From the IMG/VR virus record IMGVR_UViG_2671180254_000003: DNA of 5,862 nt. One strand, written 5' to 3'. Positions within the stretch are counted from its first letter, which is position 1. Every line of letters starts with the position of its first letter. Positions 2,490-5,697 of this stretch are shown here, piece by piece. The notes beneath the pieces were generated by a model. The model was given only the letters and a program-made list of their open reading frames with translations. It searched no databases and had not been told where the DNA came from. This stretch comes from a virus. Its lineage: Duplodnaviria > Heunggongvirae > Uroviricota > Caudoviricetes. Made by a program: the position numbers and the translations under genes.

Positions 2490-3176
2490 ATGACCCCAAT
2501 AAACATATTTATGACAGTTGCTGATTTCAAACGGCCCAAATTGGAGCTCCCAAACGGGGCAAACAAACTACTACTGCACTCTTGCTGTGCTCCATGTTCC
2601 GGTGAGGTGATGGAGGCGCTTCAGGCCTCGGGAATCGACTACACCATCTTTTTCTACAACCCGAACATTCATCCTCAGAAAGAGTATTTAATTCGTAAGG
2701 ATGAGAATATTCGCTTTGCTGAACAACACGGCGTGCCGTTTATTGATGCTGATTACGACACAGACAACTGGTTTGAACGAGCCAAAGGAATGGAATGGGA
2801 GCCCGAACGAGGGATCCGTTGCACCATGTGTTTTGACATGCGTTTTGAGCGGACAGCGCTGTACGCCGCTGAAAATGGTTTCAGTGTGATCAGCAGTTCA
2901 CTGGGCATTTCACGCTGGAAAAATATGCAGCAGGTTAACGACTGTGGGCGGCGAGCCGTCGCGCATTATCCGGGCATGGTGTACTGGGATTATAACTGGC
3001 GCAAGCAGGGCGGCTCGTCCCGTATGATTGAAATCAGCAAGCGCGAAAAATTCTATCAGCAGGAATATTGTGGCTGTGTGTATTCTCTGCGCGATACCAA
3101 TCTACACCGCAAATCTCAGGGACGCCCTCTTATCAAAATTGGTCAACTCCACTACGGTAAAGAAGAGAAGGAGTGA
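2490..3176 (+). CDS. queH: QueH-like epoxyqueuosine reductase family protein (DUF208, Fe-S enzyme)
   Basis: 228-aa ORF with the DUF208/QueH hallmark motifs as recalled from memory: [45 protein letters not shown]. Start could be ATG 2490 or 2511; neither has a clear SD. Confidence 0.8.
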
Positions 3177-3197: not shown

Positions 3198-3227
3198 TTG
3201 ATTTCATATTGGCGAGGTAAGTAGAAT
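3198..3227 (+). promoter_or_regulatory. Putative sigma70 promoter for hok-type transcript copy 1 (-35 TTGATT, 18-nt spacer, -10 TAGAAT)
   Basis: TTGATT 3198-3203 and TAGAAT 3222-3227 place a transcription start near 3234, the start of the tac-like sequence CTGCGGGTGCTTGAGG. Confidence 0.35.
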
Positions 3228-3321
3228 GACTGCGGGTGCTTGAGGCTATCTGCTTCAGGCATGAACACCAAAAGGCAGATAGAGAAAAGCCCCAGTTAAC
3301 ATTACGCGTCCGGCAAGACGC
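3211..3321 (+). promoter_or_regulatory. hok-type mRNA 5' leader, copy 1 (tac-like element plus conserved stem-loop); downstream body lost in assembly gap
   Basis: About 90 nt closely similar to 5355..5460 (CTGCGGGTGCTTGAGGCT...AGAGAAAAGCCCCAGTTAACATTACGCGTCC.GCAAGACGC). Contains stem CTATCTGC/GCAGATAG (3246-3253 / 3275-3282). Runs directly into the N run. Confidence 0.6.
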
Positions 3322-3574
3322 NNNNNNNNNNNNNNNNNNNNNNNNNNNNNNNNNNNNNNNNNNNNNNNNNNNNNNNNNNNNNNNNNNNNNNNNNNNNNNN
3401 NNNNNNNNNNNNNNNNNNNNNNNNNNNNNNNNNNNNNNNNNNNNNNNNNNNNNNNNNNNNNNNNNNNNNNNNNNNNNNNNNNNNNNNNNNNNNNNNNNNN
3501 NNNNNNNNNNNNNNNNNNNNNNNNNNNNNNNNNNNNNNNNNNNNNNNNNNNNNNNNNNNNNNNNNNNNNNNNNN
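3322..3574. other. Assembly gap (253 N)
   Basis: Uninterrupted run of N. ORFs 3236..3577 and 3255..3701 in the track are artefacts of translating N. Confidence 0.99.
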
Positions 3575-3694
3575 TAATTTTTGTCTGGATAATCGGAAAA
3601 ATAATTGAGCCAGTTATTGAATTGTATAACGACGTGGTATGGGCGTCATTCAACACACTGCACAATAAAATTAATCCGTATAAGGAAAGCTGAT

Positions 3695-4060
3695 ATGGCA
3701 CTGACGAAAAAACAACGTGCAGAACTGCGCATGAAGTTCGGTGGTCGCTGCGCTTATTGCGGCTGCGAACTTGGCGAAAAGTGGCATGCAGACCATGTAA
3801 AACCGGTCATTCGTTTTGATGGAAATATGCTTCACCAGGAACGTGACGATATATCCAACATGGTACCAGCATGCCACCCATGCAATCTGCACAAGCATTG
3901 CAGTAGCCTGGAAGATTATCGACGAATTATCAGTGATGGTCGTCGTGAATTCCTTGCGTCCGGGAAAGGCAAAGCGCTGGTTCGTATGGGATTGGTTGAA
4001 ATGAAATCTGACCCGGTTGTGTTCTGGTTTGAAAAATATCAAGAAGGGGCTACGGCATGA
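3695..4060 (+). CDS. HNH endonuclease
   Basis: 121-aa ORF from ATG 3695 with SD AAGGA (3682-3686). HNH motifs CAYCGCEL, WHADHVKPV, VPACHPCNLHK. The track's longer version starts at TTG 3605 with no RBS. Confidence 0.85.
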   Translation: MALTKKQRAELRMKFGGRCAYCGCELGEKWHADHVKPVIRFDGNMLHQERDDISNMVPACHPCNLHKHCSSLEDYRRIISDGRREFLASGKGKALVRMGLVEMKSDPVVFWFEKYQEGATA

Positions 4061-4722
4061 CCACTATTACCAAAGAGCGACTGCAATGGCTGGCTAACAT
4101 TTCTGGCCGCGATGATATTGACGATATAGACGGCGGTGAAATTCGTGAACTGGCGCTTATCGCTCTGGCATCACTGGAAGCAGAGCCTGTAGCGGAATGC
4201 ATTGTTGAAGATGGGGGCATGTGTATTGACGGGTTCGGTGAGTATGTGGGTCACTCGCTGCCTGATGGAATGCATGAGCTTTATGCTGCCCCGCGAATGC
4301 GACAACCTGATGGATGGAAAGCCGTAGCTGTAGCGTGGAAGGTGACGTTTACTCAAGTTGACCAGGAATCTAATACGTTCACTGCTATATATTTTGACAA
4401 AGCGGAAGTTGAGTGTTGGGTACGACTGCATAAAGCATGTGATTTTCGGGCAGATATAACACCGCTTTACGCAGCGCCGGCAGTGCCGGTTGCAGTAAAC
4501 GACGACATGGCTTACGCATTCCATCACGCACTGTCAGATTCATCGCTTGGCTCTGATGAAATCGAAGAAATTAAAACCGGTTTGCGTGCTGCCTTTGCCA
4601 ACGTCACTATCCAACCAGAGCCGATAGTGCCGGATGAAATCGGGCCAAACGATAGTAATACGTTTGATTATGTTGATGGCTGGAACGCCTGCCGCGCTGC
4701 CATGCTTAAGGGAGATAAATAA
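4057..4722 (+). CDS. Hypothetical phage protein (221 aa) with two LYAAP motifs
   Basis: ATG 4057 overlaps the HNH stop (ATGA), indicating translational coupling. Acidic N-terminus; LYAAP at codons 75-79 and again about 60 residues later (nt 4279-4293 and 4465-4479), encoded with different codons. Confidence 0.8.
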   Translation: MTTITKERLQWLANISGRDDIDDIDGGEIRELALIALASLEAEPVAECIVEDGGMCIDGFGEYVGHSLPDGMHELYAAPRMRQPDGWKAVAVAWKVTFTQVDQESNTFTAIYFDKAEVECWVRLHKACDFRADITPLYAAPAVPVAVNDDMAYAFHHALSDSSLGSDEIEEIKTGLRAAFANVTIQPEPIVPDEIGPNDSNTFDYVDGWNACRAAMLKGDK

Positions 4723-5087
4723 TGATTAATCGAACCAAACTGGAGCACATTCTCGAATATGCCAGGCAGCAGAAATGTATTGGGCAACTTTGTAAAATTC
4801 CACCAGGAGATATGGTTGAAATCGTGGAAATGGCCATGCGTAAGGCTGGCAACTCTCCGGTAGCTCCGGCTGGCTGGATAAGCTGTAGTGATGCAGTTCC
4901 TGCTGAATATTGCGATGTGATTCTTCTCGATGATCTCGGGAATGTATTCCCCGGTTCCTGGGATAAGGTTTTTTGCCCCACTCGTGGCGGGAATAAGATG
5001 GCTTTTGTGGACAAAGACGGCGTTGAAGTAGAGAGCTCAACTCACTGGATGCCGCTACCGGAACCACCGCAGGAGGTGAATCAATGA
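4722..5087 (+). CDS. DUF551-family prophage protein
   Basis: 121-aa ORF; start overlaps the upstream stop (TAATG) with SD GGGAG upstream. C-terminal WISCSDAVPAEYCDV...STHWMPLPEPP matches the DUF551 pattern. Confidence 0.85.
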   Translation: MINRTKLEHILEYARQQKCIGQLCKIPPGDMVEIVEMAMRKAGNSPVAPAGWISCSDAVPAEYCDVILLDDLGNVFPGSWDKVFCPTRGGNKMAFVDKDGVEVESSTHWMPLPEPPQEVNQ

Positions 5088-5167
5088 CCTGGCCTGAGGC
5101 ATTCACCACGGTAGGAATTGCGATGGCGGTGGCGCTGGTGGTGTATTCGATTTGCCGTTGGGGTTAA
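5084..5167 (+). CDS. Small hydrophobic peptide (27 aa, MTWPEAFTTVGIAMAVALVVYSICRWG), predicted single transmembrane helix
   Basis: Not in the ORF track (too short). ATG 5084 overlaps the DUF551 stop (ATGA) and is preceded by a strong SD AGGAGG (5071-5076, 7-nt spacing). Stop TAA 5165-5167 is followed within about 10 nt by an intrinsic terminator. Confidence 0.55.
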   Translation: MTWPEAFTTVGIAMAVALVVYSICRWG

Positions 5168-5172
5168 CAAAC

Positions 5173-5203
5173 AAAAACCCCGGATTGATGGTCCGGGGTT
5201 TTT
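5173..5203 (+). terminator. Rho-independent terminator (possibly bidirectional)
   Basis: A5 (5173-5177), stem CCCCGGA (5178-5184) / TCCGGGG (5192-5198) with 7-nt loop, then T5 (5199-5203). Confidence 0.8.
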
Positions 5204-5354
5204 GAAGGAAACAAAACAGAAACAGCAATTGCCGTTACCTGTTGTTACCATGGCAAGTAAACGTATCTCAGGCGAGCGCATTGCGCCGTTCTGACGCAGA
5301 TAAACTAGCCTGGATAGATGGTGCTGGCAATAAAAAATAGCGTTTTCTTATCGG

Positions 5355-5484
5355 TGTCGGTAAGATTGCTGCGGGTGCTTGAGGCTGTCTGCCTCGGGTA
5401 TGTCACTGTAAGGCAGACAGAGAAAAGCCCCAGTTAACATTACGCGTCCTGCAAGACGCTTAACATTAATCTGAGGCCCAATCT
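5355..5484 (+). promoter_or_regulatory. hok-type mRNA 5' leader, copy 2 (putative -10 TAAGAT at 5361-5366, tac-like element 5369-5386, stem-loop 5385-5420, mok upstream region)
   Basis: tac-like CTGCGGGTGCTTGAGG is complementary to the 3' fbi-like sequence at 5749-5764. Stem CTGTCTGCC/GGCAGACAG (5385-5393 / 5412-5420). Leads into the mok/hok reading frame. Confidence 0.7.
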
Positions 5485-5697
5485 ATGTCTCACAAATGTA
5501 GGTTAGCCTCTTACGTGCCGAAAGGCAAGGAGAAGCAGGCTATGAAGCAGCAAAAGGCGATGTTAATCGCCCTGATCGTCATCTGTTTAACCGTCATTGT
5601 GACGGCACTGGTAACGAGGAAAGACCTCTGCGAGGTACGAATCCGAATCGGCCAGACGGAGGTCGCTGTTTTCGTAGACTACGAATCTAGAGAGTAA
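5485..5697 (+). CDS. mok: Mok-like regulatory reading frame (70 aa), in frame with and containing hok
   Basis: ATG 5485 opens the only frame open across the hok start. Length matches chromosomal Mok-type frames (recalled from MokC, which is an N-terminally extended HokC). Whether it is translated is inferred. Confidence 0.5.
   Translation: MSHKCRLASYVPKGKEKQAMKQQKAMLIALIVICLTVIVTALVTRKDLCEVRIRIGQTEVAVFVDYESRE
5542..5697 (+). CDS. hok: Hok/Gef-family type I toxin (HokD/RelF-like small membrane protein, 51 aa)
   Basis: MKQQKAMLIALIVICLTVIVTALVTRKDLCEVRIRIGQTEVAVFVDYESRE shows the Hok family signature (TM helix, LTRK.LCE.R...EVA.F..YES). SD AAGGAG sits 8 nt upstream of ATG 5542. Confidence 0.9.
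   Translation: MKQQKAMLIALIVICLTVIVTALVTRKDLCEVRIRIGQTEVAVFVDYESRE

Follow-up and report, generated by a model that had tools for sequence, protein, structure and literature searches.

We analysed a 5,862-nucleotide (nt) stretch of a Caudoviricetes genome (IMG/VR record IMGVR_UViG_2671180254_000003; hereafter the window, meaning the whole stretch at its full length), which carries on its plus strand a string of overlapping open reading frames (ORFs) for an HNH endonuclease, a protein of 221 amino acids (aa), a DUF551 protein and a 27-aa hydrophobic peptide. The string is probably a set of ordinary, translationally coupled and dispensable early genes of a Rac-like lambdoid prophage, assembled by recombination and including an optional HNH gene. 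Conservation of gene order, a check named beforehand for the idea of a four-gene unit, essentially failed: among 5426 complete Escherichia coli genomes, only two held at least 80% of the region 3580-5300, with most matches covering just its two ends, and among 80 IMG/VR contigs with an HNH at least 96% identical to that of the window (77 loci evaluable), the order HNH, 221-aa, DUF551 (121 aa) and 27-aa was found in 16. Approximately 30 of the 80 contigs had a gene for a 114-aa protein after the HNH gene, mostly with the 27-aa ORF next, and the remainder showed about 25 further arrangements; orders other than that of the window numbered about 30. The exact 221-aa protein occurs in thousands of assemblies, and the ten places inspected shared a single context rich in IS1 and IS3 on chromosomes of 4.8-4.9 Mb with Shigella source names; because this context is fixed and rich in insertion sequences, we attribute the abundance to clonal inheritance in a Shigella-type lineage rather than to independent conservation. 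Module frequencies also differed several-fold across the complete genomes (27-aa ORF, 1607; 3' half of the upstream DUF4014 gene, 1024; complete HNH gene, 385). Together with the unconserved order and the many partners of the HNH gene, these frequencies speak against the stoichiometric, nuclease-centred functional unit suggested by the initial annotation, and its pairing of a nuclease with a small membrane peptide appears coincidental, given that the 27-aa ORF follows many different genes.

The overlaps between genes showed the same independence of neighbours. In 75 of 80 loci the HNH stop codon shared bases with the ATG that follows, regardless of which gene came next, and the genes after HNH all started with MTT(I/F/N). 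By these counts, start/stop overlaps are apparently generic in the region and not particular to these four genes. The coupling signals (gene tail, Shine-Dalgarno sequence and ATGA) travel with the recombination joints and therefore constitute no proof of mutual need. The locus may thus serve as a worked example: in the early regions of phages, closely overlapping starts and stops are no sign of a functional module.

Direct reading of the sequence and the ORF table both confirmed four co-oriented, overlapping genes. The HNH ORF runs from the ATG at 3695 to the TGA at 4058-4060, the 221-aa ORF from the ATG at 4057 to the TAA at 4720-4722, the DUF551 ORF from the ATG at 4722 to the TGA at 5085-5087, and the 27-aa ORF from the ATG at 5084 to the TAA at 5165-5167, with junctions of ATGA (4057-4060), TAATG (4720-4724) and ATGA (5084-5087). 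Ribosome-binding sites were purine-rich at all four starts, namely AAGGAAAG (3682-3689) for HNH, GAAGGGG (4043-4049) for the 221-aa ORF, AAGGGAGA (4708-4715) for DUF551 and, as the strongest of the string, AGGAGGTGA (5071-5079, plus strand), which lies 4 nt 5' of the 27-aa ORF and inside the '...PEPPQEVNQ' tail of the DUF551 gene. The limits of the proposed four-gene unit did not hold at the 5' side, where the string begins earlier: a gene for a small membrane protein of the DUF4014 family ends there, with 1 nt between its TGA (3691-3693) and the HNH ATG, and the 3' end of this gene (3577-3693, plus strand; 38 codons and stop) is the earliest part of the coupled string that can be seen. At the 3' side, the strong terminator that had been proposed was recovered as a predicted intrinsic hairpin at 5172-5204 (-23.7 kcal/mol, z = -4.1; 0 of 200 shuffles equally stable). 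It comprises a 15-bp stem followed by UUUUU, a GC-rich hairpin and U-run on the transcribed strand as in Rho-independent terminators, and the U-run is also paired with an upstream A-run, giving a bidirectional form; a simple consensus scan assigned this hairpin to the minus strand. Terminator-like sites in the window as a whole were not in excess over shuffles (6 vs 6.2). Minus-strand ORFs across the region (123, 118, 102, 127 and 66 aa) had no Pfam or PHROG matches and were taken as shadow ORFs. Overall, the overlapping co-oriented ORFs, their ribosome-binding sites and the terminal hairpin would fit a single transcript with coupled translation.

We then examined the HNH gene (3695-4060, plus strand; 121 aa). 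Its product matched Pfam HNH (PF01844, 28.2 bits against a cut-off of 21.4) and phrog_2118 (8.8e-57), and residues C19, C22, H31, D33, H34, N55, C60, C63, N64 and K67 were invariant in 27 homologues down to 52% identity. With these hallmark residues retained, the protein is predicted to be an intact zinc-finger beta-beta-alpha-Me nuclease. Its sole PDB sequence match was the Geobacter prophage HNH protein 4H9D (E = 0.058), and the core gave a weak NinG-profile match (18.2 bits, under the 25.4 cut-off). When 53 distinct contexts (L004-L083) were compared from position -230 relative to the HNH start to +150 relative to its stop, mean pairwise identity was 95-99% inside the ORF and approximately 40-60% within 10-25 nt outside. 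E. coli O157:H7 Xuzhou21 has no HNH gene at this slot and reads ...CTGATATGAGCACTATTACC..., whereas the window reads ...CTGATATG-[HNH]-GGCATGACCACTATTACC.... Such presence/absence polymorphism at a fixed slot after DUF4014, with conserved flanks, is the pattern expected of a homing gene, and by this comparison the HNH gene is an optional module in the post-DUF4014 slot.

A reading that we regard as unlikely, although it accounts for several of these observations, takes the HNH gene for a selfish homing endonuclease gene of the free-standing kind, which cuts the HNH-less DUF4014/MTT junction (...AAGGAAAACTGATATGAGCACTATTACCAGAG...) and inserts a copy of itself, the other genes being bystanders shuffled via the resulting breaks. 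Besides the precise intergenic slot and the sharp edges of the ORF, it would explain the intact catalytic residues, the presence of HNH in both nin and ea regions, and the homogeneity of the E. coli copies found by megablast, all of which were at least 90% and nearly all at least 95% identical. However, the 121-aa protein has no recognisable DNA-binding or NUMOD-type domain, no co-conversion gradient was visible, and the 27-aa ORF and other non-nuclease segments have equally sharp edges, such that ordinary lambdoid mosaicism suffices. The homogeneity is also partly a detection artefact, since megablast is blind to divergent alleles. This homing explanation is compatible with a recombination-assembled string of accessory genes, which remains our preferred reading.

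Small phage zinc-finger HNH proteins such as 4H9D and HK97 gp74 resemble the HNH protein of the window in size (112-121 aa), in the motif CxxC...DH...N...CxxCN and in phage origin. HNH enzymes of the HK97 gp74 type act with terminase and are encoded beside it. In contrast, the HNH gene of the window and its relatives never adjoined packaging genes, and the terminase lies approximately 8 kb away in the closest complete genome, so a packaging-helper role was rejected. The relatives from Yersinia (73% identity), from a Klebsiella-named source (61%) and from Comamonas (47%) were located in nin or int-proximal early regions; the embedding in packaging functions that had been named in advance as counting against an accessory role was thus not observed. 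In Yersinia enterocolitica prophages (L171-L174, 3792-4004; HNH 73%), an overlapping gene for a 70-aa multi-pass membrane protein unrelated to DUF4014 precedes HNH, and the pairing of a small membrane protein followed by HNH may recur. We also noted a Shigella sonnei protein, P0242 (194 aa), that joins DUF4014 and HNH; this requires a 1-nt frame change at TGAtATG and probably represents a sequencing error or pseudogene.

The 221-aa (4057-4722) and DUF551 (4722-5087) genes, both on the plus strand, revealed mosaicism within as well as between genes. The 221-aa protein had no Pfam match (nor did the 27-aa peptide) and matched PHROGs in a patchwork (phrog_60, 12449, 5117, 660, 17148 and 3323). 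It could be divided into four segments (A, 1-46; B, 47-90; C, 88-135; D, 137-221) with proline-rich linkers between them, and segment-wise BLAST against 120 homologues showed that each segment is found again, at 75-96% identity, in proteins that differ elsewhere. A, D and DUF551 make up one polypeptide in dozens of cases among prophage proteins, others add Ead_Ea22 or DUF550 domains, and the 114-aa alternative partner of HNH matched the same PHROGs as the 221-aa protein. In E. coli SCU-125 (L187, 1684-1851), a 55-aa chimera fuses segment A to the last 14 HNH codons at the joint ...SLEAEP/VVFWFEKYQEGATA, which shows what reads as recombination at a short shared linker. The DUF551 protein (121 aa) matched PF04448 (69.9 bits against a cut-off of 22), phrog_924 and phrog_24004. 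On these comparisons, the 221-aa and DUF551 proteins are apparent assemblies from one segment pool that also supplies Ead/Ea22-like proteins of Stx phages and YfdS.

The structure and homology checks proposed at the outset succeeded for one of the two proteins in part. The AlphaFold2 model of the DUF551 protein comprised an N-terminal two-helix segment (1-45) and a C-terminal four-stranded beta domain (approximately 50-117; pLDDT 85-90 over 50-110), and its top BFVD matches were mostly DUF551-named, with several unnamed or otherwise named (best E = 1.4e-5; TM 0.79 on target). The model of the 221-aa protein was unusable (mean pLDDT 50.4, with only residues ~90-140 reaching 68-77). PDB searches by sequence and profile were empty for the 221-aa protein, and by sequence or fold they gave no relative of the DUF551 domain. 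The earlier statement that DUF551 has no known function agrees with the literature (PMC10834534, PMC4776307). DUF551 has been described as a portable domain present in Ea22 variant V2 and in YfdS, the Ea22 genes themselves being mosaic (PMC10834534), and Ea22 is reported to favour lysogeny (PMC7093339). YfdS of CPS-53, the only DUF551 protein with genetics, is like the window protein approximately 120 aa long and encoded in a prophage early-gene cluster, and it is among the CPS-53 genes that, when overexpressed, inhibit replication initiation; the effect is yfdQRS-mediated, seen with yfdQ and yfdR in combination with yfdS or with yfdT, and only YfdR bound DnaA (PMC4776307). The neighbours differ, as the window contains no YfdQ or YfdR. 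By analogy with Ea22 (pro-lysogenic) and with YfdS, which helps to inhibit DnaA-dependent initiation, the 221-aa and DUF551 proteins would most likely act as small adaptors, binding factors of the host and thereby adjusting the lysis-lysogeny or host-takeover programme. The map of segments A to D, DUF551 and their linkers may permit a rational dissection of the Ea22/DUF551 network, a long-standing gap in lambda biology.

The finding we consider new is a conserved, unannotated ORF that apparently caps such strings at their 3' end: the 27-aa ORF MTWPEAFTTVGIAMAVALVVYSICRWG (5084-5167, plus strand). It occurred in 30% of the complete E. coli genomes, at 2896 places of which 162 were on plasmids, with matches running from ATG to stop, and 90 phage records contained it by tblastn, among them 933W, VT2-Sakai, BP-4795 and P1-like phages. 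Examples of homologues are L088 2501-2578 (Stx2 phage II) and L178 3167-3250 (O157 Xuzhou21). It was unannotated in every record inspected, and a limited literature search found no published description. The predicted peptide has one hydrophobic helix (A6-C24) between E5 and R25. Of 68 distinct contexts, 64 had an upstream ORF, 50 codons or longer, that overlaps it by ATGA, and 66 had a Shine-Dalgarno sequence, the latter carried in a '...PEPPQEVNQ' tail common to proteins with different C-terminal domains. Downstream, a hok leader followed within approximately 25-50 nt in 36 of the 68 contexts, a terminator in only 12 and neither in 19. A degenerate DNA pattern searched against one-genome-per-species representatives found the ORF in Escherichia and Shigella only, together with three tiny contigs; these very short contigs (L179, L181 and L183; a Segatella copri metagenome-assembled genome, Xanthomonas pisi and Acinetobacter idrijaensis) were 88-94% identical to the window and probably represent contamination.

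There is a small but real chance that this ORF is no gene but a conserved recombination linker or regulatory spacer that is open by chance. It lies under the length limits of gene callers, has no family match, is confined to Escherichia and Shigella, and occurs in disrupted copies (W3 to stop in L086; a frameshift in L052). What argues for translation is frame-specific constraint: the ratio of nonsynonymous to synonymous polymorphism (pN/pS) among 25 intact distinct copies was 0.32 in frame, compared with 1.12 and 1.38 in the other frames (an earlier estimate in frame was 0.28). Conservation also spans the ORF from ATG to stop, an in-frame 6-nt deletion variant exists, the ribosome-binding and coupling signals are nearly universal, and the ORF is kept independently of downstream sequence. 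Rfam returned only the neighbouring sok elements and nothing over 5084-5167. The ORF most likely encodes a genuine single-pass inner-membrane peptide. With its 27 residues, a single hydrophobic helix between E5 and R25, a prophage location and hok as a neighbour, the predicted peptide is comparable to type I toxins and small inner-membrane regulators. Type I toxins are Leu/Ile-rich small hydrophobic peptides that are translationally silenced, whereas the 27-aa peptide is Ala/Val/Gly-rich and its ORF is coupled to the preceding gene, with no antisense RNA or long structured leader found. The 27-aa ORF, present in Stx1 and Stx2 phages and on P1-like plasmids as well as in about 30% of the complete E. 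coli genomes, is a candidate small protein that could be tested at little cost.

The genomic setting places these genes among early functions. The window contains, in order, the tail of a replication initiator, a DnaC-like loader, DUF977, a Zn-ribbon ORF, QueH, a partial hok/sok leader, a masked stretch, the string and a complete hok/sok locus; this gene content marks it as early-region DNA of a Rac-like lambdoid prophage. The type I toxin locus of hok/sok type (5360-5697, plus strand; mok from 5485, hok 5542-5697; PF01848, 76 bits; Rfam sok, 118.1 bits at 5373-5547) is a neighbour outside the string. In the closest complete genome, E. coli FDAARGOS_944 (L001; 99.9% identity), the string lies between ydaU/V-type replication genes and DUF1367, DUF1364, DUF1133, tRNAs and lysis genes, with the lambda-type terminase beyond them. 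Two known regions offer comparison. The lambdoid nin region (NinB-NinH, Rap/NinG, RusA) likewise lies between the replication genes and Q and consists of overlapping, small, dispensable ORFs subject to module exchange; the Yersinia and Klebsiella HNH relatives sit among NinX, NinE, NinG and Q, but no named Nin family includes any of the four proteins. The ea, or exo-xis, region of lambda and Stx phages also comprises non-essential early genes that are tightly packed and strongly mosaic (PMC10834534, PMC7093339, PMC3824215). Ea22 variant V2 has DUF551 as its C-terminal domain, Ead_Ea22 is carried by homologues of the window segments, and Stx phage ArgO145 has the string DUF4014-HNH-(114 aa)-(27 aa) exactly in its int-proximal ea region, whereas the string of the window follows the replication genes within the rightward early region, on the nin side. 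As a system, the string is one further permutation of the mosaic early accessory genes known from lambda-like and Stx phages.

Taken as a recombination-assembled accessory string, the locus would contain at least five genes (DUF4014, HNH, 221-aa, DUF551 and 27-aa), of which the four ORFs form the distal part, and would be flanked by the replication genes (DnaC-like, DUF977) on one side and by the hok / DUF1367 / Q region on the other. The genes would be co-transcribed on the plus strand, with overlaps of 1-4 nt and a Shine-Dalgarno sequence for each leading to coupled translation, and the transcript would, judging from geometry, end at 5172-5204. Comparison of loci shows a recombinational patchwork and no dedicated machine. 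The ends recur, with DUF4014 on the 5' side and, on the 3' side, the 27-aa ORF preceded by the Shine-Dalgarno sequence that is embedded in the neighbouring gene, and the interior is exchanged at gene starts (MTT...) and at the linkers ...SLEAEPV..., ...PLYAAP... and ...PEPPQEVNQ. Several observations weigh against this interpretation. The 114-aa gene was flanked by HNH and the 27-aa ORF in 76 of 80 loci, a recurrent pairing that could reflect function; an HNH gene (61% identity) followed by a DUF551 protein gene was also found in a Klebsiella-type prophage, and segment D and DUF551 were either fused or adjacent. The viral-contig and genome counts are raw, with lineages not dereplicated. The 221-aa and DUF551 proteins lack the Ead_Ea22 coiled-coil domain (PF13935) and share only other segments with proteins that bear it, such that the functional analogy is indirect; BLASTP against lambda Ea22 gave E values of at least 0.49 or no alignment, and direct homology to lambda Ea22 was ruled out for want of similarity. 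A search of the literature for HNH together with Ea22 returned nothing relevant. Finally, a 253-nt N mask hides the 5' boundary of the string.

The initial annotation had speculated about a defence/exclusion or anti-defence module. That the four genes jointly constitute such a dedicated conflict module, conferring superinfection exclusion, abortive infection or anti-defence from the prophage, we consider very unlikely. The tight coupling and terminator, the accessory region beside a hok toxin locus, the small membrane proteins flanking the string (DUF4014 and the 27-aa peptide) and the hypervariable C-terminal domains, typical of arms-race proteins, would all fit such a module. PADLOC returned nothing for the 221-aa, DUF551 and 27-aa proteins and matched HNH only weakly, to PtuB (PDLC00315, 31.6 bits) and PDC-M01B profiles, and NCBIfam gave only sub-threshold IscB and retron HNH matches (TIGR02646, 21.8 bits). 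Although the HNH core aligns with Septu PtuB and retron HNH proteins, the PtuB match covers a 70-residue motif of a 227-position profile, with scores far below the cut-offs, and neither a PtuA ATPase nor a retron reverse transcriptase or non-coding RNA lies nearby; the string itself contains no ATPase, reverse transcriptase or sensor gene. On these partial and sub-threshold matches to the HNH motif alone, assignment to a defence system was rejected. The unconserved order, with HNH optional and followed by many partners, the roughly fourfold higher frequency of the 27-aa ORF, which follows unrelated genes, and the occurrence of the same genes in early lytic operons of Stx phages also argue against a module. 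A defence or anti-defence role of individual genes is possible, but nothing supports the four as a unit.

The upstream boundary bears on a further alternative. The translation of 3577-3693, IFVWIIGKIIEPVIELYNDVVWASFNTLHNKINPYKES*, matches exactly the C-terminus of the DUF4014 protein of FDAARGOS_944, which at full length scores 90 bits to PF13198 and matches phrog_1832; no mention of DUF4014 or of the 27-aa peptide sequence was found in the literature. The N mask (3323-3575) covers the 5' part of the gene, whose first ~101 nt would fall there. The hok/sok leader is present twice as a direct repeat, at 3198-3321 and 5360-5459 (50 nt at 96% and 43 nt at 81% identity, ~2138 nt apart). The left copy (plus strand; Rfam sok, 53.9 bits, model positions 1-58 only) enters the mask, and since 238 nt of hok plus the 101-nt DUF4014 start exceed the 253 masked nt, one of the two genes must be truncated. 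A promoter-like site, TTGATT-18-TAGAAT (3198-3227, scoring 9/12), lies directly 5' of this leader copy and could read into the string. Attempts to recover the masked nucleotides gave no match in IMG/VR with a gapped exact pattern and only non-colinear joins with flank-spanning BLAST of E. coli genomes. The QueH / hok-leader / DUF4014 junction was absent from all other genomes and contigs searched; the loci with the exact 221-aa protein differ from the window in upstream context, and in all other loci examined the Zn-ribbon gene precedes the string, with no hok leader between them.

A promoter / genes / terminator layout is that of morons in the lambdoid literature. We accordingly weighed whether a promoter in the hok-leader copy drives DUF4014 through the 27-aa ORF constitutively, for the benefit of the lysogen (e.g., membrane-level exclusion), and we give this little probability. 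The promoter-like site, the strong 3' terminator and a leader copy after which an entire hok and an entire DUF4014 start cannot both fit are in its favour. Yet promoter-like sites in the window are not beyond chance (5 vs 5.8), the critical junction is masked, the arrangement is peculiar to this record among those searched, and the terminator is a minority variant. Least probable of all, and in our view barely credible, is a cassette-exchange locus in which DUF4014, variable MTT-proteins and the 27-aa peptide turn over an arsenal through HNH cutting of conserved junctions, the cargo being hypervariable host-interaction, possibly anti-defence, proteins and the two membrane bookends being the functional partners of that cargo.

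Neighbouring genes yielded several minor observations. QueH, an epoxyqueuosine reductase and tRNA-modification auxiliary gene, was detected within the prophage early region at 2490-3176 (220.6 bits), and in E. coli FDAARGOS_943 (L003) QueH lies directly 5' of hokD. The Zn-ribbon ORF (1929-2342) starts in other records at an internal ATG at 1986 (118 aa) and not at 1929. The DUF977 protein (1506-1928) matched the PHROG 'Ren-like exclusion protein' (2.7e-44).

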